From Amoebophrya sp. A120 (lineage: Eukaryota > Protista > Dinoflagellata): 64,000 bases of DNA. Every line of letters starts with the position of its first letter. Within the stretch, counting starts at the first letter, position 1. The stretch covers positions 6,109,860-6,173,859 of the forward strand of contig CAJINV010000001.1 in the NCBI GenBank assembly GCA_905178155.1, written 5' to 3'. Position numbers and translations under genes: made by a program. The notes under the pieces are model-generated. The model saw only the letters and a program-made list of their open reading frames with translations. It had not been told where the DNA came from and ran no database searches. This document shows, in pieces, positions 15,563 through 52,891 of the stretch.

Positions 15563-16747
15563 ATGGCGCCGCGTGGAAGGACACCCGCGAAGAGCATGAA
15601 GAAGTTCAACCCGCTTACCATGTACCCGCCCAAGTCGTACGCAGCGACGGTCCGGATTTTCTGCGGTAAGTACGCCTACCGGGCGGCCTGCGTCTGCATT
15701 TGGGGGACGCACTTCCCCTTGGCCCTGTACCTGCTGTACGGCGTCTTTGTCAGCAAGGACCTCAACCCCCTGCCTGACCTCCTGGAGGGCTGCCTCATGC
15801 TGGGCATCGCCGTCGCCACGTTGTCCGCACACATCATGAGTATACTGTTTTTTTAGTAGGAGGAGGAGATATACATGTTCATCTTCATCATGATATGCAA
15901 TAGTACCTGTCGAACTCGAGTTCTTTAAGAAGTTCTGCCTTGTCGTTTCTGTATTCGGGTATTGAAAGTGAGGGCTATGAGCCCGTGCATCCTTTACCTT
16001 GGTCGCGTCTAAAGTGTGACGAAAACAAACTCAGACACCATGCGAGCGGGGAAGCATGTCGCGTGCCTGACCGGGATGGTCTACCACTTCATCACCGCCT
16101 CCGCGTGCACCTCCTTCCGACTGAAGCGGGCGGTATCGCAAGAAAAAAGTGTTACAGTTACACATAGTGTTGCAGGCATAGCAAGACAGACAAGGTCTGT
16201 CATGCCGGATATGCATAGGGGCGTTGTTTCATATGTGTTTTCCCGTAGGATTTCTGCAATGCAAGTTTTCTCTCTCATGCAGAGAAATTTGTGTTGCTGA
16301 ATTGACAACAAATGTGTGACTGTAACACTTTTTTCGTGTGATAGGCGGACCAGTTTACCTATTGCCGCGCCATCGACGCCCGGATCATCAACTCGTTGGG
16401 CATGTACGACTACTTGCAAGGTACGACTATACTTGGCTTTATTGCATAGTTCAGAACGTGAACGAATGACAGTTAGACAAGGAGTTTTTCTTTATCAGCA
16501 CAAAAATAAAAAAAGCTCGTCGGGGTTCATCGCGATCTTTAAATTCCTAACCGTGTCAACCAAATTTTGATTTATGCAAAACTTCTTTGTGTCCTCCTCC
16601 TCGTACGGTATAAAAACTAATAAACAAACTGCAGGTGACGGCGGTCTCATTGCGTTGTTCAAAATGTTCACGTGCGTCATGTTGGCCGTCTCGATGTACA
16701 ACGCCGGCGGACCGGGCATGCAGAAGTTTCTGAACAACTCGATTTAA
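15563..16747 (+). CDS. Small multi-pass membrane protein, unknown function; introns 15840-16034, about 16133-16344 (introner) and 16421-16634
   Basis: GC-rich exons with hydrophobic segments join in frame: AHIM|NTMRAG...KRA|(A)DQFTY...YLQ|GDGGLI...NNSI*. Confidence 0.7.
16134..16343. mobile_element. Introner/MITE family A, copy 1 (210 nt, direct repeat GGCGG)
   Basis: TIR tatcgcaagaaaaaagtgttacagttacacat / atgtgtgactgtaacacttttttcgtgtgata. GGCGG at 16129-16133 and 16344-16348. Homologous along its length to 42178-42387. Confidence 0.93.
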
Positions 16748-17740
16748 GCACGGACAACAAACCTTGTGCTTCCGGAAGATGGACTTTTGGTAACACTAAC
16801 AACCAACTGCAAATGCCCATTCTACGAAATTTGAAGCTCTATCCTGTTTTAGCAGGTAGAGCACAGCTTCTATACCGGGCCTCCCGCCTGGGGTTGTAAG
16901 ATTGCTATGTACACTACTCTTCCATAGTACCAAAAAAGCTAGAGCTGCATCTTCATCCTTTTTGAGCCTAACAGTCAGTACCCTTTTCTTGCTCCTGTTG
17001 ACAAATCCGCATACCCTTTTTGACTATTATTCAACATGACTATTCCACGCACGATAGTTTGTCTCCGAGTCAGCCTTCTTGTACCATAAGTATAAATCTT
17101 CACTGCAGCGCTCATGATTTTGATTCCTCACTGCTTTTTCGTGTTTTGCGCATTTGTCAGTTTGCCTCTATGTAGTTGTCCTCTTCATGATGATAATAAA
17201 TAGGTTCCACCTATCGCTTGTACTTGTTGTAGGTAAGCGACAGACAACCGTGTAGTCGAAAGGCAATGGTTCGATCAAGCGAAAACGGATTTGACAGCAT
17301 CTTCAAGGCGACTGCAGGCTTGATTAAGTTGAAATTTGATCGTCTCATTGGTGTTGGTCGTCCTTAGCATCCGAGGAACAGGCTTGCATTGTCGTTAGAC
17401 TCGAAACGCATTTTGTGTTCATTTTATCGTTCGTCAGCCCGTGAGACGATGAGGGGCGATCGTCCGTGGTTCTTGGAGTGGAGCGCACCAGCAGCTGAGC
17501 GACGAGCGTTCGTGGCGTGTTTCTTCGACTAAATTCCACATGTACATTCGGATTCGCTGCGTCTCTACGGTGGGCAGCAAATGGAGCCGGCAGCCAAGAG
17601 CTCTTACGAACTACAGGTGTTGATGAACATGCGAAGATCTTGCGCCCTTGACGACTTGTGTAGTTACCCTTGAGAGAAAGAAGAGCCAGGGTGTCAAGAT
17701 ACAATCTTCTAAGTACGGCGGCCAAGAAGTGAGGAACAGA

Positions 17741-19632
17741 ATGCAGGTTCCCTCCGGGCCAGGCAAGTCACTTTCGCCGCCCATGCTGCAGGTTCCGGGC
17801 GAGAACGGGCCGAACCCCTTTGGGCAGTTTCGGCTCGGGAACCCAGCGGCACCGCCCGCGGGTCCGGCCCCGGTGGACCGGCAAAGAGCCCTGGCCATGC
17901 AGCAGCAATCGCAAAACCTCGCAGCCGTGATGTCGGGCGGCGGCGGCAGTGCCGCTAGCACAGCGGCATTTGTCAGTCACCACCAACCCCAGATGGTGCA
18001 GCACCTACCGCACACAGCCGGGGCGGTTTTGCAGCATCCGTCCGCCGCTGCCGCACAGCTCGCAGGTGCGGCTAACGGCGCAACAGTACTTATTTCTTCT
18101 TCTTGTCTCCTTCACGGCCGCCGGCGCTGACTTTGAATTGATGATGGCGCAGGATAGTGATAATCCCGTCTTAATTCCAATTGATTTGCAAATGAATGAA
18201 AATCGGCTGAAAATATGTGAACAAATTGAGATTTTGAGTGCAAACAAACTCTACGTTTACGTACAGGTCCTCGCAGCCACGAAGCAGCATGGGTGGCGGC
18301 AGCTTACGGACGGTTTGCGAGAACTCCTGCAGCAGAAGATCGGCTTTCACACCCAGATGCAGAGTTTCGCGCAGGCCTCGGCTGACGAGCTACAAAAAAA
18401 TGCCACGACGCTAGACAAACTGGAGTCCATGCTAGTCCAGTTACAAAACGCACCACCGCCGACCGTCAGTGCTCCAGCTGGAGCGGTTTCGCAGCAAAAG
18501 GTAAAAATGTGTGGATGAATGTTTCTGAAGTTGTGCATGAAAGTGCTTTCACCAGAATGAGCTTCTGTTTGAAGCCCATTATCCCGTACAACTGCTTTGT
18601 TCTGGGCTTGCGTGTGCCTTTTCCAAACATGATTTTCACGTGGAAACAGGTTGTCGCGGCTACAGGGCAAGTGCCTCCATTTTTTTGGCAACCGAGCCAC
18701 GACTACGAGAACGAATTTGCTGTGTCGGGAGACAATCTAGAGGTGGTGACAAAGGTTCGAGATTTTGAAGATCGAGGGTGGGTCATTCCGGTATTTGCGC
18801 TTTTGTGAGCGTCGTGGTCGTGTTTGCCTTTGCATAGTCGTAGCCTGTGCTTGGAGATAAACTCTGTCGCGCTCTTTCGTTTTTTTTTCAGATGTGAACT
18901 TTTGATGTGTAGTAGTACTAGTCTCCTCGAACACAAGACAGCCAACACTTGCAGGTCGCGGGTAGTCTGCGCATGGTCCGGGGTGCGATCTACCGGTGGT
19001 CAATGTGCATTTCGAAGAAGTGCCAGCACCGACCACAAATGCAGTTCGGCATCCACGGAGAGAACCACGAGAAGCCGTGGCGGCTGGTAACCACTAGTAG
19101 GTGCTCGCGTTCGAGGGACGATGACCCGTGGCAAGATCGCCCCGCGGGGGACAGGCTGATAGGTATAAACTGTTTGTGTTGTTGTATTGAACGCCAGCTT
19201 GCTGCCATAAGCATAACAACGAATTTTCGCCATGCATTTGTTTCCTGTACCTGTAGTACAGCAAAGACAGACGCCGATACAAATAATTGGAAGAAATTTC
19301 GCAAAATTTTCACAGAGGAAGGCGACTACATCCACGTTGTCGTTGACTTGCGTGGGTTCGATAGCGAGTTCGGTACTTTCTCTTATGCGGTGAACGATGG
19401 GCCAATGGAGATGGTGTTTGAAGATTTGCCCCTTTTGACTCCAGACGGCAAACTTGTGTCCCTCATGCCGGTTGTGTCCATGGGCGGCGACCAGTGCGCA
19501 GTGAAACTCAGCGCATCTGCCTTCGGCTCAGCAAGTGCTGCTGGAACCACGACTGCAAATGGTGGACCTGCGGACAGTGGTGCTGTCGGGAGCGCCGGAG
19601 GTGCGGCGAAGGGAGGAAAGAGTGGGAAATAA
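17741..19632 (+). CDS. SPRY/B30.2-like domain protein; introns 18086-18266, 18501-18649, 18791-18954 and 19163-19315
   Basis: All four GT-AG introns keep frame. C-terminus GDYIHVVVDL...GTFSYAVND...VFEDLP...LMPVVSM has the SPRY beta-sandwich pattern. Short coiled coil upstream. Confidence 0.7.
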
Positions 19633-20948
19633 GTTTGAGGCTTCTGACGAATTCATCGAGCGCGTTTCTGTAGTGTCTAAACAATCAATCAGCAAAAAAC
19701 GTGACCTAATAAACCCAATAGACTAATATTTCAGCGATACAGGATTTGTGTGTTGGTCAAACAACTCGCTGTTCCTCTTGTACAAAACTACTTACCAGGT
19801 ATTGACCAACCACCTGTCATCGCATGATTTTTCAGAAACAAATTTGATAATATGTTACGAGAAAACAAGTAGATCTGCTTCTGCAGAATATCCTGCGTGT
19901 AAGGTAAAATATAGTTGGGTTTTGCAAGCACAAAAAGCTGCACAGAATAACATCCAGAAAATCAAGATTCAAGATTGCGACCCCTTTGTACAGATTTTAG
20001 CTTGTTTTTTACCCTTTCGTCCGCACAATAAACCCGTCCTAAAAACACGTAGACCCTCGACGCAGCACAAGTTTCAAGTAGCTTCAACATTCCCACACCA
20101 TGCGCATCCGACCTATCGCCATTCATTGCGCATTCTGTGACAGGCATTGATCGTTGTATGTGTTCGACGGCTGTGAGTTTTCATCTCTCTCCCCATTCTC
20201 TCACAAAGTGGCTCTGGTTTTCGCTTTGCGTAGCGTAGCGCCCCCAGCGGTTTGCAAAGATCTGACTGCATCACGATGGTGCCCGAAAGACAAAAAAGGC
20301 CGATACGTCGCGACGATGGTGCAAAAATACTTGGTTTGATGTTGACTCACTGTCCCGATTTGCTGACGTCGAAGATCATGGTCTAGCGAATGGTAAAGAA
20401 GCGGTCTTTTCGTTCTCATCTTGGCAACTTCTCAAAAGCTCAAGTTCAACGCCGTTTGAAGATCCATTTTGTTTCTTCGTGTTTTTCTCTGAGTTGTATC
20501 TTGCACGAGGACGATGGACATGGATCGCATTCTTTCGATTTTTTCAGAACAACAGCAACGGAGGTGGATGTGACAGCACTAGCACATCCATTCCTGGAAG
20601 ATTTCGAAGCATGTTGCTAGGTCTTCGTTCAAGTCGCGAACCAAGAAGCAGAAGCTTTGCGCAATAACAAAACATACAATATCTCGCGATGCGAACGTTG
20701 TGATAGCGGAACAAGCATCACGTTGAGCGCTCATCTTCAGAAATTGTTTCTCAAGAAGAACTGCCACTGCCTAGTCTGCAGATGTTGAGGCAACTTACGT
20801 AGGACGATAAAACAAACACCAAAACGAAGAATGGAGTAAATTGTCCAACGGTAACAGTTTTCAGTTTCTGAAGTACCACGGCACACCAGACAATTTCAGT
20901 GAAGTTTTGGCATTGATAAGAGTTCTATAAACAAGATCTGGCGTCAAC

Positions 20949-33800: not shown

Positions 33801-33888
33801 GGCACAGCAACAGCTGCAGCAACGGGGCGGGCCAAAGAAGCAACGGAAAATGGCTCCGAATTGGAGCAAAGTTGCGAATAAAAAGTAA
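30821..33888 (+). CDS. Hypothetical protein (short N-terminal coiled coil, low-complexity regions); introns 30998-31232 and 32919-33033
   Basis: Three ORF segments are joined in phase 0 by GT-AG introns (KYST|AVPKD; KHKE|KRIKN). No family recognised. Confidence 0.65.
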
Positions 33889-34622: not shown

Positions 34623-37600
34623 ATGACGCTCCGCACGTCACTTGTGCTTGGCGCGTTTGTGTCGCTCATTTGCGACCCGCCCGGGGTAGTTCTTGCGAGC
34701 GGAGATGTTGCAGATCAAGCGGCAACAAGAACGACCGACACTGCGCTCCCACCTCGTGTTGAGCCAGCAGCCGTGCCTGTTCTGCCTACAACTAGGCTGA
34801 TTCCGACGATAGAAGCTCATGCCGGTGCGACAGAAGATGTAGATGGAACAACCGTAAGTTCCACAACAACTGCAAACCCGAACGCGTGGCGCAAACCGCT
34901 ATCCTGGACGATCCCTCGCGAGCAGCACCAGGAATGGGCCGCCAGGACGGGCATGCCTGCAATTTTGACGCACGAGTTTTGCTGGGAGCTGGCTGCGCAG
35001 AACAGAGAAAAGTTTGAGAGGCTGCGAAAATTAGGCGAATTGCAAAGGTCCACGCCGCTTCCAACGGGGGCGGAGCGAAGGAAGCTCGCCGCCGCGAACA
35101 GTGCAGCGCACGGCGGTCGGGCTGCTCTAGATCCGAAATGGCATGAGGAGATGCTGCGTGACGCCGAGGCGCATCGCGCCGGCGAGAAGCGGCGAATGGA
35201 GGAGCGAGACCAAGACGCATTTCGAGGAGTCCCAACCTCCTTCTCGCCAGGCCAGGAGGACGAATTCTGGCAGCCATTCGGGGATCTAGGAAAGTATTTG
35301 CCATATGCATATTGTTCGATCCAGTGTTCTTGAGAAGGAACGAAAAAAATCTGAGCGTCAGCACCATCCTAATCTCACCAGAATGGCTATAATGACCGAA
35401 AACGAATAAAAGTAAAACCGCTACCATCGAATTCTTCATCTTCAGGTATTGTGAGCAATACTCGGGAATGCATCCGTCCGCGAGGGGTATGACGTACATG
35501 GAGCGCATGCGTATGGCGAGGGGAATCATCCTTGAGACTTTGCTCGCGAAAAACCAACACGCCGAGGAGGCGGCGAGGGCGGCGGCAAAGGAAGAATTCC
35601 TTCCACAGCGAAGAAGGCTGGAAGAGGTGCGCGGAACCTTGCGAAGTCTGCGAGCAAACGAGGAGGAGAATCGGCAGCTAAAAATTGCAGAAGAAGAGGA
35701 CTCGTCTGCCAAAAAAAGTGCTGACCAGCAGAAAAAAAATCTAGAAAACGAAGAGCGCGAACTTGCCGACCTGGTGAAGCGCGAGGAGGACGCGTACATG
35801 GAAAGAGAACACCGCCCGTTTATCGGCATAAAACTCGACCCCACACCGCTGAAAGTGAAAGAGGACATGGAGAAGCGCGAAAGACAAGCAGCCCTGCAGA
35901 AACAGTGGGAGGAAAATAGGGACTCGTTTCTTCGAGGCGGCATGCGGGCTGGAGTCGATGACAAAGAAGAAAGACAAAAGAGGAAAAGGGCCGCTGCGAG
36001 GAAACAAGCAAGTGCAATAGGTATTAGCGGTGTAGTAGTAGGCGCAGCACGAGATGAAAACTTTGAGGACCTGAAAATCGGTGGCTCACAACATGCAGTG
36101 ACGGCAGGAGTGGGGGAGCAGTTGTCAGTTGGAGGTTCTTCGGCTGCACCAACAGCAGATGAAAACGAAGCGTCCGTACTTGCTGCCCTTCGGAACTGGT
36201 TCGTTGCGATCGTCTCTAACTTGCACGCAACTGTCCTTGATCTTTCCGCTATCACATCACCTAACGATGCATCATCAACACCTGCGAGAGAACAAGAAGA
36301 AAACTACAGGGACGGACTGCTCCACAAGGAAGACTGGGCTGTGAATCCCGCGGATCTGTTCACGCACACCGAGAACGCTGATGGTTTTTTTGTTCCGGCA
36401 GATCTTGACAAGCAGCTGCGGAAGCCGCACACAAGAAAGCTAGCTGCCAGAATACGGGCTGATGAAACGGAAACGAAAAATCATAAACGAAATCTACAAG
36501 AATCGGGGGCACCAGCCACAGCACATCTAAAAAAAAACGCCGAAGAACCAGTCGCTCCGCGGACGCCCGCGTCGAGCGCGTCCTCGGCACAACTGGTACC
36601 AGCCGGCGCAGCACCTTCAGCAGCTGCGTCCTCGCATGACGAAGAGCTCCCTACGTTTTCTGCTACTGGTACGTGCGTACCCAGCTTTGATCATGACCTT
36701 TTTACCGAAGATCCTCGTGAACTAGAAGCTCATGTTGACCGGCATGACAACTCGGAAAGAACCCCCGATAAAAGCACCACCCGGCGCTGCCTGCAGTCGG
36801 GCGACATCAGACAGATCGGAATTGTGAACAACATGCCAAACCAGACTTTGGTGAAGAAAATCACGGTGGGTAACGTGGTCTACAACGCGAACGAAATTCC
36901 CATCCGCAACCGCATCCCCATTCCAGAGCTGCTGAAGGACGACAACAGCAACAGCAACGACCCGCAGCTGCAGGCGGACGACAATCCGTACCTCACTTCC
37001 TTCACGCTCTACAACTTCGAGGCCAAGGCCTCCCTGGTGATGCACCAGCGCCGCGGCAGCATTTTTCTCTACGACGTGGATTCCAGCACCTACGACGACG
37101 TCCCGCGCGGGGTGGACTTCAACGAGGTGCTGCCCCCGGCGATGCGGTTCCGTTTTCACTCCTGCAAGGAAAACAACGCGTTTTGCCACGTGCAGATGTC
37201 CACGTACATCGACCAGGGCCTGGTCGTGCTGGACCGGCACCGGATGATGATCGTAAAATACCCGTGGTCCACGTTCGCCGGCGTCGACCGGGTGTACGAC
37301 AAGACGGTGGAGGACATGGTGCTCCGCATGCCGCAGCTCAGCATTTTTGGTACCATGGACATCGCGGGCGCCGGCAACCTCGGCCTGCAGTCGGCGGAAG
37401 CGGTCTTGCGGTACCAGACCCACTCCGACATGGTGTTTGTCGAGCGGATCGACGCGTTCACGCCGGGACATTCCATCGCTAACCCGGATATCCTGTGCAA
37501 AAGTATCGTACTCGTACCAACTGCAGTCATGCAAGACAATTTTTTTTTTTTAAGCTAAATAAGCATGAGAAATTCCACTTCTCATGCTGAGCTAGATTTG

Positions 37601-40067
37601 TATTGCAATACTACGAATACGATAGTTTTGCAGTTCATACCGGATTTTCTGCACGTAGCGGACACCTTTCTGTTTGTCGCGGACACGGGGAATGATCGGA
37701 TTGCCATTTTCAATCTGACCACACCCGAAAGCTACTCGTTCTACGAAACCTTCCAAATGAAAGACTCCTTGAAGCCCTCGCCGGAGCTGAATCGTCCGGT
37801 GGCACTGGCGATGTTCCTACCTGGGATGGAGTACAGGTACAGGAGAAAACTACAAGATTTGAATTTCACCTACTTAAGCCTCTCCCCATCTACTAGTTTC
37901 CGGTTTTTATCCCGACGAAGGAAGTGATTCATCTAGTCGTCCTGCTCACATAGACCACATATCTTGACGAATCGAACGACAATCAAAAAAAGAATAAAAA
38001 CAAAACCACCCCACCACACAGGGAGAGCCCCACGTACGCAAACATATTCCTCTGTGACCGTTTGAACCACCGGGTTCTGAAGTTGAATTGGGGCTACTAC
38101 CAGTACAGCGAGCAGTACAATTTTACGATCTACGACGATTTTGGGTTGGTCGACCGAATTGAACAGCGGACGCGCTACTACCGGCGCTGGAACCGCGGGC
38201 CCCACCTCGAATACGACAGCCAGATCGGCGGCGACACCACCCCCGGCGGCTTTAGTCAGGGGTTACTGACTATCAAATGCAAAAGTGTGTGGGTCTGGAA
38301 GGATGCAAGTTTGTCATGCTTGTCTGGCATGACTCGAGAATCTGTGTTGCATAGGCGCGAAAAGGCCCTCTTACCTGTCATGCAAAAACGCAGGCTGCCA
38401 TGCGGAATACGTAAGACATGGCAGCCAAAAAATTTGTCATGCATAGTTGCGTATTGCAGTGCGTCTACCATTCACTTTTAGCATTACAAGTTTCCAGACC
38501 CAGACATATCTGCATTTGATACTGACGGAGCCGATTTCCGTGCAGACGTTCCGGCACTACATTTTCGTGCTGCAGTACGGCTCGGATGAGATCGGGGTGT
38601 ACACGCTGAACTACAATCAGACGAAGGAGTTTTTGTTCGTTACCAAGTTCTATCAAATGCAAAAATGTCTGGGTCTGGAAGAATGCAAGTTTGTCATGCT
38701 TGTCTGGTATGACTCGAGAATCTGTGTTGCCGAGGCACGAAAAGGCCCTCTTACCTGTTATGCAAAAACGCAGTTTGTCATGCGGAATACGTAAGACATG
38801 GCAGCCACAAAATTTGTCATGCATAGCTGCGTATTGCAATGCGTCTATCATTCACTTTTAGCATTACAAGTTTCCAGACCCAGACATATTCGCGATCCAT
38901 AAGTTCACGAACAGCCGCAAGATCGAGTACGGGATCGGCGTGAGCTACAACGGCTACGTCTGGTTCGCCCAGCAGGAATCGCGGCAGTCCAGTTACGAGA
39001 AGGACCTGGCGGTGTTTGAATCGCCCCGCGACCTCCGCGAGGGCATCCGGCAGTACAAGGCGGACGACTTGAAAACGCAGTGCGTGGACCTGGATTTCTA
39101 CAACAAGACCATCATGAACGACCCGGCCGAGTTCGTCCGGGTGGTGTCCCACGCGTTAAACATCTCCGGGCTGCAGTACTTCTACCCGAACCGGACGGGG
39201 ACGTACGTGGACCTGAAACTGTTCAACCTCTCCTACGTGGCGGAACAGGATTCCAACCCGTTGCTGACCGGGCAGAACATTTACACGCCCCCGGCGATGG
39301 ACTTTGGGTACAATCCCAGCGGCCTCATCGGTCCGCAGTACCCCGAGGAAACCTGGTGGAACAGTACCAAAGCGGGGTTTAACTTCCAACTCTGGAACGC
39401 GACCATCTACGGGGGGATCGTGATGGAGGTCTGCGAGGTGTACATCCCGACGCCGCCGCCCATGCTGTTTGGTGGACAGGGTGGGTTCGTCAATCAGGAC
39501 GGCTCCGCGTTGCAGCAGTGGGACATCAGTGCGGCCTATGATCACGGTGGAAAGAGGAGGGGTGTTTTGCTGGAAAAGACCGTTTTGTTACTCTTCATGT
39601 ACTGCGTTTGGTTCATGCTGTTTCATCAGCCGCGGAAGAATTTCTACTCCACGCAGCTAGAGGAAACAAGTAACTCAGTTCATGTGCTGGTGGAGGTGCA
39701 GGAAAGAAACAGTCGCCGCAGTTTTGGTGTCGCTGCAAGAACGTCGATTTTGCAGCACGACAACAGAAGTGTCGTCGGGCTCCCGTGCGGAGGTACTGCT
39801 TCGGAAAAGAGCTCTGGAGGTCCAGATGCGGAAGCGAAACACGAAGACGAAACTGAGGAAGACCACGCACAAGAACACGACGAAATGACCTCTGGCGTAA
39901 CTGCATCGTCCACGACACCGCATTCGAATTTGCAGCATTTTCCGCGCGGGTTGGTCGTCGAAGTTTCCAGTGACAGAATACGAACAACAAGAATACGAAG
40001 CCGACAGCACGAGATAAGAAAAACTAGAACTAGTACACTTCTCAACGACAAAATGGCACCAGGCTGA
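34623..40067 (+). CDS. Large secreted/membrane protein with NHL-like beta-propeller repeats; GT-AG introns 35294-35445 and 37837-38021 plus three introners
   Basis: N-terminal signal-peptide-like segment. NHL motifs FVADTGNDRIAIF and IFLCDRLNHRVLK. Late hydrophobic segment VLLLFMYCVWFMLF. The frame is continuous only after the three TIR elements are removed. Confidence 0.72.
37489..37639. mobile_element. Introner/MITE family B (151 nt, direct repeat CCGGA)
   Basis: tatcctgtgcaaaagtatcgtactcgta ... tacgaatacgatagttttgcagttcata. CCGGA on both sides. Excision gives ANP-DFLHVADT in frame. Confidence 0.88.
38271..38521. mobile_element. Introner/MITE family C, copy 1 (251 nt, direct repeat CTGAC)
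   Basis: tatcaaatgcaaaagtgtgtgggtctggaa ... ttccagacccagacatatctgcatttgata. Excision gives GLL-TEPISVQ in frame. Confidence 0.93.
38651..38901. mobile_element. Introner/MITE family C, copy 2 (251 nt, direct repeat AGTTC)
   Basis: Near-identical to 38271-38521. The right TIR is partly decayed (cgcgatccata) but still ends ATA. Excision gives VTKF-TNSRKIEY in frame. Confidence 0.92.
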
Positions 40068-41693: not shown

Positions 41694-44600
41694 ATGAGCG
41701 ACGTGATGGTGGTAGAAGACCAGACGGCGGCGGCTCCGGATGGAGCCGCTGCCGCCCCCCCACCAACCGCGGATCCTGGGGCGGGATCATTTGCGGAAAA
41801 CGCTCCCATTTCGGAAGAACAAGTGCGGAAGCAGATCTCGGATCTTATCGAAGCAAAAACGCCAGTGGAGGAACTCATAAAACTACCAGAGCCCGTGCGA
41901 GACAGCCTCGCGGCAGTGAAGGTACGGTGGAACGTGCTGTTAATTTTTTTCGCATGAAGCATTTTTGTTCGGATAAGTGGTGTTTGCACTGACTTACTTA
42001 CATACATGCGCAAGATGTGACTTTTGTTCCTCACAGGTCTATAATATCTACATCGTTTTTTTACCTTTTCCTTTTCCTACTTTTTTTTCGCAGGTGGTGA
42101 TGCCAGTCCTGGGCGACTATGATGAGGTCGAGCAGAAGATGCTCATTGAAAATTTCGCTCCCTTGCGAAGCACGATTTATCGCACGAAAAAACTGTTACA
42201 GTTACACATTGTGTTGCAGTCCAAGCAAGACAGAGAAGCTCTGTCATGCAGGATATGCGTAGGAGCCTCGTTTCATAGCTGTTTTCCCGTAGGACTTCTG
42301 CATTGCAAGTTTTCTTGCTCATGCAAAGAAATTTGTGTTGCTAAATTGACAACAAATGTGTAACTGTAACACTTTTTTCTCACGATACGATTCTACCCGA
42401 GGCCATTAACATGATCATCGAGCGGCTGATATCCTGAGTAAAAGCGTCCCCACACCAGAGTTGTAATGCAGATTTGCAAAGACAGGAAGACTTGTAATGC
42501 GCATCCCCATGAGAGCCATTTCCAGTCGTGTTTTGGAATTTGTGATGCTGTGAACAGGATGAGCAGATGAATCTGTGACGCGGCTGCTCTTGCTAGCCTG
42601 CACTACACTGCATAGTGCAACTTGTCATGCGTGACTCCTAAAACTCCTAGGTTTGTGTTGCAAAATCCTCATCTTGACTCTGGTGTGGGTACGTTTTTAC
42701 TCAGGATAGCTGATCCTGTGGGTATCCGAAGTTGAGCGGGGAAACCAAGATGCGACGCAGCAAGCCAAGGAGCTCACGGACTTGTTCAAACAAATTCACA
42801 GCTCGCCCCTGCTTCCCTGGCTCAAAATGGAAGCAAGCATGGAACGAAAGGTATAGGACTATATACAAATCTGGAGATATTACGAATAGCAATGATGTGT
42901 TTATTGTCCCTCACTTGCAGCATGCGCCACGTAAGACCAACGACATCGCGATCCATGGATGCGATCTGCGATCGAGTCCTGTTCTTCCTACTACGCCGTA
43001 TTTTCTGTTTCCAGTTCTTGATGCTTTATAAAAAATGACTTGCACAGATCAAGTTTCTGTACGCCCTGGGTAGCTGCGTGGTGCTAGCACACGCCGAGGA
43101 CCCACCGGAAGGCCCGATGTCCGGCGCATCGCTGCTTGAATGCCGACGAATCCTGAAAAAGTCCACGGTAGTACAGACCTGGTGCCAGAGACTACTCACC
43201 CCCTTTTTCTCTGTGCCCCAGAGGAGCAACACCTTCGTGCTCGAGACGTGGATCAAAGCGCGGAAGGAACGAAGTTACAAGCTGTGGAAAATGGCGCTCG
43301 AGGCGGTGATGCAGCAACCGACCGCTAAGGAGGAATTCAAAAAGCACTGCCTGACGCTCTTCGACCCCGAGGACAGGGCGGCGCTAGAGTACCACCAGCC
43401 GTATCAGCACAACTTGAACTCGTTGAAAAGCGCGGTGCGACTCTACGGCGGCGAGCGGAACATCGTCTTTCAGAAGTTCAAAATTATTGCCGAAAAGTTT
43501 TGCAAAGACGAGCCGGTCGCGGGGTTTTACGACACGTATTTGGCAGACCTCCCAATCTATTCCGTCGAACTCGCTGCCTTTGCCAGGCTGATGATGCAGG
43601 TAGGGATTTTTGTCTATTGCTTCATATAATTCTGATTCTCTCTTTTCCATATTATGGAAAATCGAAAAGATTCAACTTGTGCAGCACTTTGAGGTGGGAC
43701 GAGAGGCTGGCTCTCAATTTTCTATTTCCACAAAACAGGTAATCGACCGAAGATCGGAGCTGTTTCAGATAATAGATGGCGAGTACCTGATCCTGAAGAA
43801 TCCGGGAAAAGAGGCGCTTCAAAGAGACATATTAGCGCCGCGGATAGCAGCCCGGCAGGCGCAGCAGTACCAAGTGCCACCGTGGATTCTCGAGACGCTC
43901 GCGAGCAAAGGTCTCCCTGAGCAGGCTTTCCGAGGGAAGGATAAGGGCACACAGAAATTGATTGTCCAGCAGATTCTGAAACTAAAGGGAAAACCAGAAA
44001 ATTACCTCGAGATGACGCAAGCACAGGGAGACGGAAAAGGACCGGTAACATCATCTTTGCATAATTCCTTCATTTTTACATGTTGATCAGATTGCATTCT
44101 CCTCATCCACAGGCACGCAAAGAGCAGCTCTCAAACGAAAATAAGCGGGAGAAAAAAAATCTTCTACAGGTCACGGCCGAGCAAGCCTTTGCGTTGCAAA
44201 TCCGCAAGTTCGTGATGGACATGAAGGGGAAAGGAAACCACAAGGGCGTAATGGAGTTGAAGGGCAAGCTCGAATCGAAAGGCAAGAATCTGATGCAAAT
44301 CCTGCAAGCCTCGGCCGCCCAGCCGCAGGCGGCACCCGCGCAACCCCCCGCAGCCGCCGCTCCTCCCGCCGCAGCAGCGCCGGCCGCAAGCCCACCAGGT
44401 TCTGCGCCAGCATCTTCCCCCCCACAAGGCAGTCCTGCGCAACAGGCATCGGCACAGCAGGGAGAGCAGACACAAGCTGAAAAGGACCAGGCCAGGAAAG
44501 TTCAGGTAGGAACAATGAGTTGCGGTGTATGATTTATCTTTTCTTTTGCATGAACGATCGTCAAGGAACGAACGGGAACGCTTTTCAAATGGAGTCTCAT

Positions 44601-47591
44601 GTCAAATGAATACCAAAAAGAAAAAGCGAAATTCAAAGTCCTTTGTTAACGAGGAGCAAAAATGCCGAATGTTTTCTTCATTTACACCCCTACACAGGTC
44701 GTCCTCGCGCTCCGCAACAAGGGCAAAAGCAAGGAGGAGATTACCGCGGTCCTTCCAACCGTCCTGGGAAACGAGAACATCGTGAACATGCTGCTTGCCA
44801 ACGCAGCTGCTGCTGGCAAAGGCGGACAGCCCGGCGGATCATCCTCCAGCACCGACCCAAAGGCAGGAGGAGCCGCGGCCGCGCCGCAGGGCAGCCCGGC
44901 CGGGACATCCAGTATTCTAGCAGGAACGAAGTTCCAAATGAACCTCTCCGCCAAGGACTCCTCTGTTTCGGAGGGCAATGTGCCAACGCCGGCCACGAAC
45001 GGTGCGGTGCCACCAATAAACAATCCGCTCGCGAGCCCACCGATGAACGGCGCACTGAACAACAACGGGGCCACAAGTGCAGTGCAGCAGCCCGCGAACC
45101 CGTACAGCAGCTACGGCGCTAGCGGGATGCAGGCCGCGGGGAGCACGGCGCAGCCCGTGAGTGGCGCGGCAAAGCTTTCTGCGCTGTCCTCATCGGGGTC
45201 GTCTGGCGACTTGAACAACAAAAACAAACCAAGTCTGGGCGCGGTATTCGAGCTTCCGGGCACAGAAAACGCGAATGATACGAAGAAAAGCAAAGCGTCA
45301 AATTGGCCGTTCCAGCAACAAGAGAAGGAGAAAGGGAATAACAAAAAGGCGGATGGCGTGCTGGGGTTCAGAAGAAAAAGAAAAATTCAGTGGGACAATG
45401 CAGCTTTCTTGAGAGCAATAGTCGCAGCGGGGCTACAGGTAGAAAAAGATGTGTTTTCGGTCAATTTTCGTAAGCATGTTGAGCGCTTGAAAATGATGGA
45501 ACTCCACGCCAAGTTCTTATCCTCAAGATTGCATCGGAAATTACTAACTACCTCACTCACAGGCGGGCGACCACAACTGGTCGCGCGAGTGGCACACCGC
45601 TTGCGCGGCTCACGAGGGGGGTGGCATGATGCCCACCAGTGTCCTCGATGTCCCGGTGGCCATGCTCCAAACCTTTGTCGAGCGGCACCTGTTCGAGGCC
45701 TACCGGGCCGGCTGGGCGGACGAGATTCTCTACCTCGGCCCCTCGGAACCGGACGACGCGCCACCGCCAAAAAAAGTCCTCGAGAACTACGCGGTGAACG
45801 GGGCGGCCGGCGGCGGTCAGCAGCAGCGGGTGTTCCGCGAGGTCAGTGACGACGACGGCTCGGAAGACAGCAAGCCCGGCGGGCAGAAAAAGAAAAAGCT
45901 CCCGCCACTTTCCGTGCTGGGGCTGGGTGGTCCCTCGCCCGAAGAGCCGGCGGCGAACGAGCAAGGCGGAGACGCCGCGGCCGCCGCTGCCATGAACATT
46001 GCCTACACGCAGGGCACAAACTCTTCCGGAGGAGCGGTCCCGCACAGAAGAGGGATCGGCATTCCGGGGAAGGGGCTGGGGCAGACCGGTATGATGATCA
46101 CGTTAGGGAGGCCAGAGCCGACGGGAAACACAGCGCCAACGGCCGCAAATGCGCAAATCACGTACATGGAGGGGGCGAATCAGACCGGGTACTAACTACC
46201 GAAAATTTCAGCTTTTTTGTATGACAATGAGATATTTTGTGAAAAATGAACACACCAGGAAATGGGAAAATGAATTCTGGTAGGCAACTTGGTCGAGTTA
46301 TTTGTTTCATACGAACACAATGTGCTTTTTCGTTTTTCGCCACAGGTTCACCGACGAGCAGCCCCCGTTCCCCGGCTCTGCGGAAGAGGCGAACCTGGTT
46401 GAGAAAAGGAGAAGGACCCTCACCAAGCTGCGGCACCGGCGGGAGAAGCGACAGCGTGAGGCTGACGCCCCCGAAGACGAGGCGACCGGGAAAAAGAAGA
46501 GGAAAAAGCGAATACACTTGACGATGTTGGGATTCTCCGACCAGGACGACCATCAGGACTCCAGTACGGACGAGGAGGAGCTCTTCGGCGACGGACCAAC
46601 TTACCATTGGAAAACAAGAATTTGTTACAGCTTCGACCACGGGCGGTGCGAAAAGGGCAAGTACTGCCACTATGCGCATACGGAAAAGGAACTGAAAACA
46701 CCGGGACAAGCGAGGCAGGAATGGGAAGAAAAACTGAAGAAGAGAGGCGTCATACCGCCGCCGCTTATGCCGCAAGGATGTACAGCATTTCTTATTTTTG
46801 CTTGTTGACTTCTGTACCTGCAGTCGACTTCTAGTTGTGTTTTTTTTTGATTTTGCAAGCGCGAGCCCATAATTTGCCCTGCAACTGCATCTTTTACACT
46901 TCCTTTGCGAAGTCACAAACTTACACACACACAGCCCTGTCTGGCGCTCCGACTGGCGAGGGGCTCGTGACAATAGAGCAGGCTATGCACGGCTACGTGG
47001 ATCATTGGGGAAGAGATGCCAAGGGTCACAAGGGCCACAAAGGATTCTATGGAAAAGGTGAGATTTTGTTTGTAAATTTGTGATGCCGAGATGGACAAAA
47101 AACAGCTCTGCAGCTTATGTACGTTAACATGTTGCAATATGGATTCAAAAGCTCCTCCAATCTCCTCCTACACTGCTCATCCTCATTCTATCACAGACCA
47201 CCACAAGGGATACGGAAAGATGGACCACAAGGGCTTTCATCACCACGGCAAGAAGGGCCCAATGCACCTCCCAGACCACAAGGGTATGCATCTGCCATTC
47301 GGCATGCAACCGCCAGAACAGGATCTCGGCTCCGCCTTCGCCCCGCACGACCCCTCGGCGCCCCCCATGATGCCAGGTGGTCCACCCGGTGCCATGGGGC
47401 CCCCGCTGCTAAAGGGCGGTCCGGGTGCTGCTATGGGTCCACCCGGGGCTGCAGCTGCTGTAGCAGGAGGCGCACCGGCCGAGGGCGCAGCTGCACCGAA
47501 GAAGGAGAAAAAAGAGAAGAAGGAAAAGAAAGAGAAAAAAGAAAAGAAAGAGAAAAAGAAAAAACGCGACATCGACGACGAGGACCTGTAG
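41694..47591 (+). CDS. CCCH zinc-finger protein with KKE-repeat tail (probable RNA-binding); nine GT-AG introns plus two introners
   Basis: WKTRICYSFDHGRCEKGKYCHYAH (C-x7-C-x5-C-x3-H). GT-AG introns at 41922-42093, 42851-43047, 43600-43738, 44045-44112 (or 44169), 44506-44697, 45439-45562, 46189-46345, 46780-46934 and 47058-47196 all keep frame. Confidence 0.72.
42178..42387. mobile_element. Introner/MITE family A, copy 2 (210 nt, direct repeat CGATT)
   Basis: tatcgcacgaaaaaactgttacagttacacat ... atgtgtaactgtaacacttttttctcacgata. Excision gives LRSTI-LPEAIN in frame. No GT or AG at the borders. Confidence 0.93.
42430..42708. mobile_element. Introner/MITE family D (279 nt, direct repeat GCTGA)
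   Basis: tatcctgagtaaaagcgtccccacaccagagt ... actctggtgtgggtacgtttttactcaggata. Excision gives IERL-ILWVSEVER in frame. Confidence 0.92.
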
Positions 47592-48687
47592 CGCTATTGG
47601 CCGCTTTGTTATTCTTTATGTTTTTATTGAAATAAACGCGCAAGAGTCATGAAGAGCTCCACCAGGAGAATGTTCCAAAACCAAAATATCGAAACGTTCA
47701 TTTTTACACACGACTAAGTAGCTTTCCTAGTTCCAACTCGAATCTATGGTTTACATTACGTCCAAAACGAATACAGGAAAATCCTCGAAGGTCGCGCCCA
47801 AACGACTTCGAGAAAGATCCATCAAGCGAAAACGTATACTCGAAATCTGCAATTTGAGCACTTCAACTTCCTTTGTTGTTTGTCCTCAAAACAAAAACGC
47901 ATTTTCGAAGCGAAAGCGACTGCGACTAATGTATCGACTTCCCTTGTAGTTATCAAATGGAAATGCAGCGGCGAAGGACCGCAGCGCGCATAACACCATT
48001 ACGATTACTTTGTATTTTGTATCACGATGCGCCGGACGCGGACGCGGACCGAGCGTGGGGAAGCGGAAGCACGTGCCTTCATCTTGAATGATCTGTGGCC
48101 TTCGTTAATGCACCCGCATCCAAGATGGCGCTCGTTTCAGGGGCTTGGTCGTGATTCGCTCTCCGTGTTGACCTGTTTCTGTCCTGCGGCGAGATGCACA
48201 GCAGCAGAGTTATGGAAAGATCAAACATTAACGCACACAAAACACGTAACATACAAAGCGAATTTTTACTCTGCAAAGGTCCTTTTTGTACCTTGCTTCT
48301 TCAAGATTTTCGCTGCCCCAGTTGTTCGCTCCTCTTGCCTCATCTTTTCGGTGATTCGGCTTCTGTACTAAATGGCAACCCGCTTGGCCGCCGACGAGTA
48401 CCTCCGAAAGTTTACAGAGGGGAGTGATTCTTAGTTCATTCTGCAACGGAAAGAAGAAGCCCTGAGAGTTCTAGTCCAAGAAAGGAACAACGAGTCGGGC
48501 TGTGTAGTTCTAGTTTTTTTTTGAGAGTGCAGCTCGAGGTGTAGGGCTGTTCCAGCATGCGACAACGCTTTCTCGTACTTACGAGTCAATACGAGGATAG
48601 AATCAATCTTCTGCCACTAGATTTTTTCCAACCGAGCATCCATGATGACGTAAACAAACACAAGCGCAGGCAGAAAGAGTTGAGGAG

Positions 48688-50596
48688 ATGGAGCGGGCGG
48701 CTCAGGTACCACAGCGTACAACTGGAAGACATCAACATCGAGCCGCGCACTGTACAGTTTCGGCCCTGTTTGCGGCTTTCTTCGCGGGCCACCAATTTGC
48801 ACAAGGGTTGCAGCTCCAGCCACGAAGCAATGCTGCCCTGATTTTTGAGAGGGAGTACGAGAAGGTGAAACATGGGGCGTACGAGCACGACAACAGTTTT
48901 TCGCCTAATAGCGAGGAGTACGACAAACTCTACGCCGCGTGGCTAACGCCCCGCTTCGCTAAGTTGCAGAAGCAAATCGACACCGCACGACTGCATGGTA
49001 ACATCGGACAACAAGAGAAGGGAGTAGAGAAGGCAGCTTCTCATCAAAATAAAGACGATACCAGTGACAGTCCCGTGGCCGCCCCTCCTTCTCTCGTCAT
49101 TGGCATCAAAACCGCTGGGGCGTGGACGCGAGTGCGTGATGTACACCGAACTACATGGATGAAATCGGAAAACCGACAAGGCAAAAAATGCGTCACCCAG
49201 AAACAAGTCACGCCTGGGCAGGTGACCGCCCGGTTCCTGCTCGAGGGCGAGCCGACGGAGGACCTGCTGAAGGAACAGGCGAAATTTGGAGATTTGGTCT
49301 TTCTTAACACCACGGATTACGCACACAAGCTGCCGCTGATGCCCAGTGATAGGCGAAAAGTGTTTTCTTGGTTTCGGAAAATAGGAGAGATCGAAGCGGG
49401 CGGTGGTCCTGACAAGAACGAAGAGCAAGCAGTTGCAAACACCAAGAAACCAAGCTACGTGGCAAAAATGGACTGCGATACCTACATTGAGCCGTGCGAC
49501 CTGCTCGAGGACATGGCGGGCAGCGGGACGCCTTTGTACTACGGCCAGATGAATGGGCGCAAGGAGCTTTTCAACCCCTACGGCGGGCGGGACATTGACA
49601 AGTGCCGGGCCAAGATCGAAGGACGGACCGATCACGAACCTTTTATGCAGGGCGGGTAAGAGCAGAATCAGAGTGTGCTGCTTTACCTCCTTTTTGCATT
49701 TCCATTCATTCTTGCGTTGGAGTAGGGTAGACTTGGCTAGCTTCTTGAAATAAGTGTACTTATCGTAGCAATTTCTCATCTTCAGGTTCTACGCTATGTC
49801 CCAGGACATGGCGCACTGGATGGCGGAGTACCCTTCCTACCCGCGCCTCGTCAAGTCGGAGGACCAGGCCGTTGGGTGCATGATGCTGTACTCGATCCGT
49901 GCGGGCGCCGCCGGCCCGCAGATGGTGCACCCGGTCGTGTGGGAGCGCGAGGGCTGCGACCAGCACTGGTGCAACGCGTGGGACCCGAGGGGCGGCAAGT
50001 TTCTGTTCAAGCACTTGTGGTACGAGTTCGCGGCGCACGTGGGGAAGCCCCGGCACTTATCAAAATGAAAAATCCCCCCTCCCCATATCAAAACGGAAAT
50101 TTGTGATGCTGATTTGTGACCACAAATCAGCTCTGTATTGCAGAGAGGCACTGCGGCCAGATCCCCAGGCTAGGTAGGGGCGTGCGGGTCTGGTAGTTCA
50201 GCATGGCAAGCGGCCCCCCTTTAGGCCCAACAGCATGACAAACCGCTTCCATAATGGGGCGGAAGCTTGTGCCCTTATCTTCTTGCAAGACAGATGTGAT
50301 TTGTGACCTCAAATCCGCAACGCAAATCTTTGCAAACATACCGCTTCAATATGGGGAGGGGGGATTTTTCCTTTCGATAGCACTACAGCATCAATGTGAC
50401 CGACGTGATGGCGTTGCAGGATGACGGCGCGGTGATTCCAGAGTCGAAACACGACGTACTGAAAGAGGAGCAGGAAGGAAAGGAGGAGCAAATGCAGAAG
50501 GGTTTGCAGAAAGAGAAAAAGCCGGCTCCAGCGCAGGCTTTGGAGGGGGGAGCTTCAGCCGCGAAGGCTGAAAGTGGTGCGAGGAAAGAGCACTGA
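48688..50596 (+). CDS. GT31 (galactosyltransferase-like) glycosyltransferase; GT-AG intron 49656-49785 and introner 50058-50379
   Basis: LVIGIKT, RDVHRTTW, EQAKFGDLV, YVAKMDCDTYI (DxD), LYYG, FMQGG|FYAMSQD and SEDQAVG match the GT31 pattern. Confidence 0.82.
50058..50379. mobile_element. Introner/MITE family E (322 nt, direct repeat GCACT)
   Basis: tatcaaaatgaaaaatcccccctccccatat ... atatggggaggggggatttttcctttcgata. Excision gives KPRH-YSINVTD in frame. Confidence 0.92.
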
Positions 50597-51071
50597 GAGT
50601 GAGAAATAAAACAAGGAGTAAAGTGTGTGGTTGTCATACATACTGGACAGGTCTTACATGTGGTTGTGGATGTTTGTTTTCTTTTCCGAAATAAATACTA
50701 GGTGTTTGGACAGTTATTTTTCCGACGGCGCATGCAGTAGCAGTCGTGATGCCCAAGAAGATCAAGATTCATGTGAGTAACTTATTGGCTTGCTTCACCT
50801 GGCGGTGCAGCGGAACAGATTGCACTTTTACCACATCGACACCTCCGGTGTCAGGGGGCCATCGAGTTGCTTCAGATAACAGCATATCGTAGCTGGTCGT
50901 GTTTTGAAAAACAAAGCATGTTCTTCTCGATCTCGAACGCGACTCCACGATCTGTTCAATGTGCTGCATCTTCAGACGGCTAAGTTCCGAAACAACGCAG
51001 ATCAAGGACAAAAAGACAGCGTCCTGATGCCCTTTCGAGGGCCGGGGCGCTCTCTTCGGGACGAAAGAATT

Positions 51072-52891
51072 ATGGCGCTCTTCTCAAATAATGTGATGAT
51101 GCGCGGCCCTATGAGGTACTACTACATCCTCATCGCCATGGGAGTAGTTGCTCCCGCGTTCGTTCAATCTCTGCAGGTGGCCCGTAATAACAAGAAAACT
51201 CTCGACCAGCCGAAAGGATCGATTCCGACATCCAACTTGCGGCCCGTAGAAGAGTTCTACGTGGACAAGCTGCGACACTCTGGCGTGCTCGCCCGAACGA
51301 CAGATCACCAGGGAAATAAAAGCACGAGTGCAAGAGCATCGGCTGCAGCTTCTTCCCTGCAAGAGGCCTTGCAGGAAAAGGCCATCTCTCACTACCAAGC
51401 CGAGTCGTCCGATGGGTTGGCGGAATTAAAGCAAGAAAAACTCGTTTTGAAGAACAAAAAGAGCTACGACGTGCTGTTCCTCGTGCGCGCTTGGCAACTA
51501 ACGACCGAGCAGTACACGCGCCTACGGGAAGAGGTGCTGGACGTGAATGCATTTCACGGTGAGGAACGGCTAAAGGAGCTAAATCTGCACAGCGAAAATC
51601 TGCCTGCTGTGAGTTCCGCCAGAAAACCGAAGATCCAAAATCTCCACATGGTCATCTCGTACGACATCAGCGGCAGGAGAAAAGAAGACGTCTACCAAGA
51701 GATTGAGAAGCAGCACGGCCTTCAGGTTGACAGGGAGAGGCAATTGATCAAATTCTTCTATGATCAAGACGACATCACAGCGCCGCAGCACCAGCAGCAG
51801 GATCAAAGTGCTCAAAAAACAGCTACTCTCCCGATCCACTTTCTGGATCAGAACGGAAACATGAAGGAGCGGTACCAGACTTGGCGGGAGTTCGAGGCGC
51901 CGTGGCAATTCGACGAAGTGAAAAACTACGGCTGGAGCTACCAGACGGAAGCGAGGGACAGCGCCATCGCGTTCATGGAAACGAAGGAGAACCTGGAGTA
52001 CGACTTTGTGTTCGTCGGCGAGGCGGACGTGGGGTGGACGGGGATATCACACAGAAAAAAACTGGCAGGGCATATCTGTAATGCAAAAATAAATAGACAA
52101 AAAAATCTGCATTGCATAACTGAAACAGCATGCTATGGGGCCAAGCATGACAGATTTTTCTGTGCATTTATTTTTGCATTACAAATATGCCCTGCCAGCT
52201 TTTTTCTGTGGGATAGGGGAAGCGGTTTTCCGATTTTTTCGCGCTCTCGGTCGCGACGCAGCCGGATGAGGATTTGCTGGTTTCGGTCCGCCGCCGACCG
52301 TGCGAAAATAAAGTAGAGCACAACGAGGACTCTTCTTCTTCTTCGTGCAATAAAACACATGGGGGTTGGGGCTACGACAAGCCCTACACGAGAGTCGCCG
52401 ACTTGCCGGAAGTCCCCGAGTACAATCTGAAGTTCCACACGCCGAACTTCTTCCGCTTCCTGCAGGGAAAGCTGAAAGAAAACATGTGGCTCGCGGAAGA
52501 GCACTTCCTTCGCCTGTCTAGACCGATGCTTCGCGAACTTCGGCGGCAGTTTGACAAGTTCGACGTGAGCGGCGCCAGCGAGGTCTCCGTCCCGTCGATT
52601 TGCAAGCGGTTCGAGAATTTTTATCACAGCGAGCAGCGGGTCGGCGATCAGGATCAGCAACCTCTTTCGAAGATGAACTTGTTATCCTGTGGTGTCATCG
52701 CGCCGGAGTTCATTTCGCCATTGTTCGACTGGAAAAAGCTGTCGCCACCTGGTAGAGGAGAGGCGTTCTTCGCGGATTTGAAGGAAAAGCAAACGAAAAA
52801 TGATATGACCTCCACGCGTGTCTCTGTCGCCGGAAAGGATGAGCAACGCGCTGCGGCGGGCATTGGGCAACTTGTCCATCCAGTGAAGTGA
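51072..52891 (+). CDS. DUF3405-like putative glycosyltransferase-type protein with N-terminal signal/anchor; interrupted by introner 52045-52215
   Basis: YDFVFVGEADVGWTG...DEDLL and terminal LVHPVK resemble DUF3405 motifs. Hydrophobic N-terminal segment YYYILIAMGVVAPAFV. Confidence 0.6.
52045..52215. mobile_element. Introner/MITE family F (171 nt, long TIR of about 50 nt, direct repeat GGGGA)
   Basis: tatcacacagaaaaaaactggcagggcatatctgtaatgcaaaaataaat ... atttatttttgcattacaaatatgccctgccagcttttttctgtgggata. Excision gives WTG-KRFSDFF in frame. Confidence 0.93.

Follow-up and report, generated by a model that had tools for sequence, protein, structure and literature searches.

Inverted-repeat transposon elements as non-canonical introns in coding sequence of Amoebophrya sp. 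A120

Introduction

Coding sequence in a 64,000-nt stretch of the genome of the marine parasite Amoebophrya sp. A120 (contig CAJINV010000001.1, positions 6,109,860 to 6,173,859; hereafter the window, numbered from its first letter) is interrupted by eight short elements with inverted ends, thereby raising the question of how such genes are read and what removes the elements. Elements of this kind are already known, and the finding itself is not new: they are the published A120 introner elements, the same in kind as those of Farhat et al. (2021, PMC7789003), which have TAT-N7-AAA ends and direct repeats that vary there from 3 to 5 nt (given as 5 bp in the Fig. S19 legend). The available part of that paper provides a hairpin model, RNA-seq support and a count of 29,850 repeated introns in A120. 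An earlier sequence-only reading of the window had drawn this link, and organism, end motif, repeats and removal from RNA all match. Tests of element orientation and of empty sites, which do not appear in the available part of Farhat et al. (2021, PMC7789003), are presented here.

In this study, two questions are narrowed: (i) what excises introns that lack GT-AG borders and number in the tens of thousands; and (ii) what mobilises the elements in a genome without a reported transposase. The geometry is reduced to removal of the element plus exactly 5 nt, whatever the border sequence or orientation, with insertions that vary between close strains.

Methods

The RNA side of the analysis was reverse-transcribed throughout (oligo-dT type cDNA and contigs), and X3 and X6 were taken as RNA by guess and come from a single study. 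Raw reads probed element 37489 only, because run X9 is nearly empty past 38800 and run X10 has just 4 reads on related locus L001. The DNA run was X1. The related-strain set comprised about 300 copies at 131 related loci. A first frame test (205/310 for element plus 5 nt vs 171-175 for other lengths) was replaced by a codon model since its background was high.

Results and discussion

Anatomy of the elements

The elements, named below by their first position, are as follows (TSD, the flanking 5-nt repeat).

16134..16343, unstranded: element of 210 nt, TSD GGCGG; 87% family-mate of element 42178
37489..37639, unstranded: element of 151 nt, TSD CCGGA
38271..38521, unstranded: element of 251 nt, TSD CTGAC; 94% family-mate of element 38651
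38651..38901, unstranded: element of 251 nt, TSD AGTTC
42178..42387, unstranded: element of 210 nt, TSD CGATT
42430..42708, unstranded: element of 279 nt, TSD GCTGA
50058..50379, unstranded: element of 322 nt, TSD GCACT
52045..52215, unstranded: element of 171 nt, TSD GGGGA; inverted arms of 65 nt

All eight had been proposed by the sequence-only reading, and the window scan recovered each with the same coordinates, a TATC start, an ATA finish (GATA in six, CATA in two) and 5-nt direct repeats on both sides. The left and right ends of each element are identical at 19-23 of 25 nt, and at least the pattern TAT-N7-AAA stands at 8/8 left and 6/8 right ends. The identical scan of 10 Markov-shuffled windows gave 0 such elements in each, and beyond the eight the window yielded no additional copy or remnant. 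Their repeated nature is evident from two same-family pairs in the window, from 4-60 near-full-length matches per element among the 131 related loci and from a very high summed contig depth in the DNA run. A stop-free frame on one strand runs through two of the eight, in neither case in the gene's frame.

Coding frame and host gene

When each element plus 5 nt was deleted in silico, the + strand frame was open across 8/8 junctions, and the codon model placed the flanks on both sides in matching phase at all eight. The proposal that the elements lie inside coding sequence, and that deletion of element and repeat restores the frame, is thereby confirmed throughout the window. At related-strain sites, the coding phase in the codon model was consistent with element plus 5 nt at 200/278 vs ~93 by chance. 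The best-documented host gene is the following.

35447..40067, + strand: host-gene coding stretch with three elements inside and a GT-AG intron at 37837-38021; part of protein P0001

With the elements removed, the joined gene equals P0001, a public Amoebophrya sp. A120 protein of 1479 aa, to which a 209-aa window query is 100% identical. The A25 orthologue is gap-free over the three element junctions of this gene; the further proposal that conserved motifs are restored holds for these three, which are the junctions that the check covered.

Removal from cDNA

Junctions removing element plus 5 nt, which the sequence-only reading had suggested looking for, were found in cDNA for 6/8 elements, directly at 37489 and 52045 and by gap length in contigs at four more. 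At element 37489, 156 nt are gone, and 37483 is joined to 37640 in 294 raw reads (85 starts), with a read depth of 0 inside the element at 37541 and 37595; the raw reads are matched by two RNA-like contigs. At element 52045, 176 nt are gone: letters 1-1011 of X6 record 14 run up to 52039, and the record continues from 52216 with letter 1012. Contigs of X3 and X6 carry a 371-nt gap at elements 38271 and 38651, which equals the removal of both 251-nt elements plus 5 nt and of one GT-AG intron. They also carry a 1451-nt gap at elements 42178 and 42430, which fits one of 10 models (both elements plus 5 nt out, acceptor 44169). For element 50058 the RNA support is weak and consists of the length of X6 record 13, and for element 16134 the evidence is frame restoration in silico.

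One alternative is that cryptic GT/GC-AG sites close to the elements are spliced in the ordinary way, or that the genes are pseudogenes. Frame-keeping GT/GC-AG pairs do occur within ~20 nt of the borders of 7/8 elements, and an in-frame GT-AG pair at 37503-37658 is equal in length to the removal at 37489, yet it is unused. The exact joints at 37489 and 52045 and the identity of the joined gene with a public protein argue against this explanation, which is refuted at 37489 and has a negligible probability overall; element 16134 alone stays compatible with it, through a GC..AG register.

Hairpins and direct repeats are also a setting of template-switch artefacts of reverse transcriptase. The mRNA could then keep the element, with ribosomes bypassing it or the mRNA being dead. 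The setting here matches, the joint at 37489 is ambiguous in placement by 6 letters, and any 5-nt duplication includes, by arithmetic, a complete codon in frame, which ribosomal hopping would require. Against such an artefact stand the complete skipping at 37489 (depth 0 vs 294 joined reads), the 73-88 reads of the same run that do enter a related element end, the 12 elements that break a 926-codon frame at L001 and the conservation of the A25 orthologue over three junctions. We regard the artefact as improbable.

Removal could instead take place in DNA, in the transcribed state, in the manner of ciliate internal eliminated sequences, which have a similar anatomy of inverted repeats plus direct repeats. 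Rare variants are, in addition, lost from contigs. The DNA run, however, has no 37483-37640 joint, its contigs enter elements at a depth of ~43, and the joined DNA forms are strain differences only; DNA excision is thus very improbable.

Neither retained elements, nor use of cryptic GT-AG sites, nor empty sites with both repeats, each named in advance as evidence against the intron reading, were observed.

Copies and empty sites in a related strain

Among 305 pairs of inverted ends scanned for duplication lengths of 2-10, the duplication was 5 nt in 237 and 6 nt in none. Neither orientation clearly prevails, the two largest families having ratios of 22:20 and 17:13. Insertions differ between the two strains, which are ~95% alike, and empty sites with a single repeat were found in each strain, in both directions, as expected of transposons. 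The L001 gene carries the 12 elements mentioned above; an RNA-like contig fits removal of element plus 5 nt at all 12 positions (4/4 gaps exact), although at least one position is empty in that strain's DNA. A profile-free HMMER search with open reading frames (ORFs) of the related loci returned a relative from A25 at 40% but nothing close among A120 proteins, and two prior protein searches were empty.

Borders and splice signals

GT-AG is available in any equivalent cut register at 0/8 window elements and GC-AG at 1/8, namely 16134. The sequence-only reading had counted seven of eight elements without a 5' GT; two rather than one have GT in some register (16133 and 38647), and neither pairs with AG. 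Both GT and AG are missing from all 7 equivalent cut positions of element 37489, and neither occurs in the 8 of element 38271 or the 7 of element 42178. Borders of the AT-AC (U12) type were found at 0/8 window elements and at 3/92 sites vs 3.1 expected. GT/AG borders show no enrichment relative to random insertion: a GT-AG cut is possible at 3/92 sites vs 3.8 expected, and an AG-ending cut at 51/92 vs 47.9 +/- 4.2.

Gozashti et al. (2025, PMC12130899), in the part available, describe A120 DNA families with terminal inverted repeats of ~149, 209, 250-256, 277 and 319-322 nt, and many families are treated there as co-opting or carrying splice sites, whereas no splice dinucleotide is enriched here; the comparison with the elements here is one of lengths and termini.

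Folding of the elements

The elements fold strongly as hairpins (z -5.4 and -4.6). Sense stems, in 169 elements, show no G-U excess (159 G-U vs 202 A-C), and sense and antisense folding are equal (p=0.54); RNA pairing strength therefore does not look selected. The duplications are seldom palindromic (4/169 fully), so that no regular bulge-helix-bulge is formed at the stem base. The conjecture of a structure-guided excision thus keeps its structural half, as the elements fold well, and gains no sign of selection on stem pairing. The symmetric end sequence, rather than stem pairing, could be what is read.

How the elements may be excised

The results support the view, put forward by the sequence-only reading, that these are non-autonomous transposons with terminal inverted repeats acting as non-canonical introns: the cDNA junctions, the single-repeat empty sites and the lack of GT/AG enrichment all agree with it. 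That transposon introns are removed exactly, which is common to both leading readings, is highly probable. Our main reading, with a probability of about 0.55, is that miniature inverted-repeat transposons with a 5-nt duplication lie in coding exons and that a relaxed spliceosome cuts at a set distance from their symmetric ends, not at GT-AG.

The copies show that insertion duplicates 5 nt without preference for a target sequence, takes place in both orientations and is recent enough for the two strains to differ. Excision, as seen in cDNA, exactly restores the pre-insertion sequence, so insertions are nearly neutral and accumulate, as at L001. Under the main reading, the signals would be UAU at the 5' end and a U-tract, 7 nt and AUA at the 3' end. 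Since the ends read identically in both orientations, paired or protein-bound ends would serve as a ruler, and both cuts would fall inside the duplications, jointly removing exactly 5 nt.

The weak step is the spliceosome as presumed catalyst. Spliceosome chemistry normally requires fixed nucleotides at the cut sites. Whichever register is chosen, the window elements lack a nucleotide that is constant at the two cut sites, which counts against a spliceosome. It is favoured because, according to the available part of Farhat et al. (2021, PMC7789003), the set of spliceosomal proteins in A120 is almost complete and U2, U4, U5 and U6 are present, with U1 not found and no U12 snRNAs reported, and because Fritillaria borealis offers a precedent. 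Its introns, as described in the accessible portions of the sources (PMC11282704, PMC7789003), are likewise derived from miniature transposons, with inverted repeats and target duplications, and are credited to a modified U2 spliceosome; they prefer AG-AC and AG-AT borders, whereas no border is preferred here.

It is possible, at well below even odds, that the same transposons are removed independently of the spliceosome, by an endonuclease and ligase that measure from the paired ends, as in a route like tRNA splicing or of euglenid type. The strong hairpins and the absence of any preferred border dinucleotide or orientation suit this route, as do the inverted-repeat introns of euglenids, which exit as circles, not lariats, according to the part of PMC11282704 available; the rarity of palindromic duplications and the undetected selection for pairing speak against it. 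Euglenid nonconventional introns, as far as the available text of PMC11282704 and PMC12501133 goes, resemble the elements here in their paired inverted ends, duplication-like repeats, lack of GT-AG and fixed distance from motif to cut, and differ in their CAG/CTG-type signature (N3CDG..CHG), which is unlike the A120 end motif; their excised RNA is circular.

A third splicing route without a splice-site code, namely a non-spliceosomal or U1-free machine measuring symmetric ends in either orientation, is tentative and somewhat doubtful. If true, any insertion with a 5-nt duplication would be reversed in the RNA, and a TAT..ATA integrase-type superfamily, still active and unclassified, would be made nearly harmless in genes. 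Element 37489 (151 nt) is a ready test substrate, since its removal is complete, its expression in one run is high and it has no GT/AG option; a scarless programmable RNA excision signal would be of practical interest.

Mobilising enzyme and transposon class

Mobilisation would depend on a DDE transposase akin to the integrase, IS3 and IS481 enzymes, supplied in trans and probably binding TAT-N7-AAAA and a repeated inner motif TGTN[A/T]TGC. A Pfam scan of 30 window ORFs and 144 of 215 related-locus ORFs (>=190 aa) gave no transposase or integrase. A 6.2-kb TAT..ATA pair at related locus L033 was rejected as an autonomous copy; it covers host-like exons and several separate elements, without a long transposase ORF. 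No viral contig matched either of two element-end patterns. The literature search, whose coverage lay outside most subscription journals, returned no title on an excising or mobilising enzyme in Amoebophrya.

Ginger2/TDD elements have TG..CA termini. The elements here end differently, the second end being TAT in 272/287 and TGT in 4/287; the Ginger2/TDD duplication of 4-5 bp, as given in the source text available, is matched by the 5 nt here. The available part of Farhat et al. (2021, PMC7789003) reports no transposase found in A120. In the accessible sections of PMC10045372 and PMC12730594, IS3EU/GingerRoot has TA..TA termini (TAYGG..CCRTA in rust fungi) that fit TAT..ATA and a 6-bp duplication that differs from the 5 nt here. 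The same sections give IS481EU termini of TNT..AYA, compatible with TAT..ATA, and IS481EU duplications of ~4, 15 or 25 bp vs the dominant 5 nt here, although of 11 copies from one family a single one has 5 bp (PMC10045372, PMC12730594). Family 38 of Gozashti et al. (2025, PMC12130899) is characterised, in the part of that paper available, by '5-bp TSD, TA/TA Termini' and integrase-like ORF homology.

Element anatomy and host genes

The description of eight elements in the sequence-only reading proved exact: each begins with TATC, ends with ATA and lies between two copies of a 5-mer that differs from element to element. These elements, named by left coordinate (16134, 37489, 38271, 38651, 42178, 42430, 50058 and 52045), span 151–322 nt with 34–50% GC and 19–23 of 25 complementary terminal letters, and comprise two pairs (87% and 94% alike) and four singletons. 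A scan with the same criteria returned eight matches for the window but 0 for every one of 10 shuffled versions, and a search of the 64 kb for further copies found none. The 1,845 element letters contain the motif TGTN[A/T]TGC 32 times, as against 12 occurrences over the remaining 62,155 window letters, a contrast inflated because the motif was picked by eye from these elements.

Removal of each element plus one copy of its 5-nt target duplication (element+5) opened the plus-strand frame in silico across 8/8 sites, as had been claimed. Once its three elements and a single GT-AG intron are taken out, the three-element host gene matches part of a public A120 protein exactly; the public gene model therefore already counts the elements as introns. 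A 209-aa window query was 100% identical to a protein attributed to Amoebophrya sp. A120 and 67% identical to a protein of A25, another Amoebophrya; A25 protein aligned gap-free over three junctions of one host gene.

The window elements are already known introner elements. In the available portions of Farhat 2021 (PMC7789003), an A120 introner end is defined by TAT followed, after a spacer of seven letters, by three or more As, and the direct repeats measure 3–5 nt; no U1 and no transposase are reported for A120, and the splicing mechanism is left open. The available portions of Gozashti 2025 (PMC12130899) list A120 TIR families of similar lengths, including one with a 5-bp TSD and TA/TA ends, which is Ginger in the table and without Ginger ends and homology in the text. 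Orientation or empty-site results may already stand in the figures or supplements of these papers.

Removal in cDNA

At element 37489, position 37483 was joined to 37640 in 294 raw reads (85 starts) of the RNA run X9, whose depth inside the element was 0 at two places; the joint also occurred in X3 and X6 contigs and was absent from the DNA run X1. X3 and X6, contig sets of one common study, are presumed RNA; GT-AG introns are missing from them, as expected of spliced RNA. Cryptic GT-AG use is ruled out at this element, where an equal-length in-frame GT-AG pair was available and unused. X6 record 14 skipped 52040–52215, the 176 nt of element+5 at 52045. The unlisted middles of X3/X6 contigs (371 and 1451 nt) matched by length the loss of 38271 and 38651, each with 5 nt, plus a GT-AG intron, and of 42178 and 42430, each with 5 nt, plus GT-AG introns; the 1451-nt match was one of 10 models tried and required an acceptor at 44169. 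A length match weakly supported removal of 50058, and the RNA comparison stretch left out 16134. At L001, a locus with related elements, an X3 contig was consistent with element+5 loss at 12/12 element positions, with gaps of 279, 89, 215 and 108 all exact. That such junctions are reverse-transcription artefacts is unlikely.

Three L001 elements are decayed (2093–2363, 2455–2779 and 4391–4678), one each by a mismatched repeat, a TGT start, and an ATT end combined with a mismatched repeat. At all three, the RNA contig of the related strain has the exact joint, and sites of this kind may allow the cut register to be fixed.

X9 carried a short form of the 37489 host gene: 161 reads have template-switch adaptor ends at 36254, and in 28 reads the poly(A) tail lies near 38005, within GT-AG intron 37837–38021; X9 reads were nearly absent up- and downstream of 36254–38005, and X3/X6 carry the long spliced form. 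At an ORF A-run (36528), one extra A was present in 249 of 297 X9 reads and two in 25; not seen in X1, X3 or X6, the extra A may be a strain difference, slippage or an assembly length error.

Duplications, orientation and empty sites

One end pattern retrieved 133 stretches from public contigs of one assembly (related strain), a sample biased to that pattern's family; in all, 316 distinct elements were counted in 131 loci (510 kb). Among 305 TIR pairs collected without requiring any direct repeat, the duplication was 5 nt in 237, none in 56 and 6 nt in 0. Under a coding-phase model trained on window ORFs, element+5 matched phase at 200 of 278 scorable sites; where the coding flanks were confident, it did so at 92 of 110. 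At these 92 coding sites, duplication starts were spread unevenly over the codon phases (45/27/20). Orientation relative to the gene, counted in phase-matched subsets of the six largest families (76, 41, 34, 25, 20 and 11 members), was 22:20, 17:13, 5:12, 11:6, 9:4 and 6:1, with bias at p<0.05 in none of the six.

Exons of the X1/X3 strain and L001 are ~95% alike. X1 DNA record 4 rejoins L001 at 1464 from its letter 103, and its first 102 letters are assigned to L001 1075–1176 by its differences at 1116–1137, a deduced placement; 287 nt (282+5) are therefore skipped. This empty site, of the kind sought by the sequence-only reading, lacks the element plus 5 nt and so keeps a single repeat. In the reverse case, X1 record 5 ends at 3410 and record 6 begins at 3406, each with 25–26 extra letters, and L001 has a single 5-mer and no element at 3406–3410; these records are read as element-bearing because X1 contigs break at elements in the same manner. 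Empty sites in both directions imply that the repeats arise on insertion and that insertion or loss continued after the strain split. X1 DNA contains at least the right end of L001 element 4391–4678, one of the 12 above; window element 42430, a relative at 69%, is inserted in the other orientation.

The elements carry 5-nt duplications, occur in both orientations, differ between strains and are lost exactly in cDNA. Their interpretation as non-autonomous transposons acting as non-canonical introns is correct, and the phenomenon is real.

Borders, stems and mechanism

The repeats permit 6–8 equivalent cuts per window element, and none of these gave GT-AG in any of the eight. A GC-AG cut was an option for 16134; an AG end was possible for 5/8, and 3/8 had neither GT nor AG. 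Relative to random insertion, the 92 coding sites (confident coding flanks, element+5 phase match) showed no enrichment of AG ends (51 possible vs 47.9 expected), GT starts (41 vs 42.2) or GT-AG pairs (3 vs 3.8).

As for the proposed structure-guided removal, the data spoke against a reading based purely on RNA structure. In two window elements folding was much stronger than in shuffled sequence (z −5.4 and −4.6), but strong folding is expected of any TIR element. Selected RNA pairing should leave more G-U than A-C mismatches in sense stems; no G-U excess was found in 169 elements (159 G-U vs 202 A-C) or at their stem positions 1–10 (54 vs 91), mismatch p-values being overstated because element copies are kin, and sense and antisense folding energies did not differ. 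Positions 11–13 were paired in 159–162 of the 169 elements and positions 4, 5 and 7 in 80–107; an end divided in two like this would suit a transposase site and a splicing ruler equally well. The A-C over G-U pattern concerns element positions 4–10 in loci L001–L131, and the gene-sense excess at positions 1–10 was absent at phase-mismatched sites (28 A-C vs 30 G-U).

The mobiliser would be a trans-acting integrase-type DDE transposase, proposed because A120 elements have TA..TA ends in common with IS3EU/GingerRoot and IS481EU (available portions of PMC10045372 and PMC12730594), and because A120 family 38 has an integrase-like ORF (Gozashti 2025). A Pfam scan detected no transposase in 30 window ORFs or in 144 of 215 long ORFs of related loci. 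Removal would proceed by end-guided cutting. We favour, with a probability of about 0.55, a relaxed U1-less spliceosome as the catalyst; that an endonuclease-ligase performs this cutting is possible but less likely. What is gained is a clean test substrate, together with narrower constraints on how these introns are spliced out.

Other features of the window

6490–7170: array of about five 106–154-nt units with G-run/C-run palindromes, between ORFs
12289–14705: kinase and EF-hand gene (domain matches), resembling a calcium-dependent protein kinase
60069–61040 and 61876–62847: tandem RING-finger ORFs of 323 codons each, 71–76% alike in DNA
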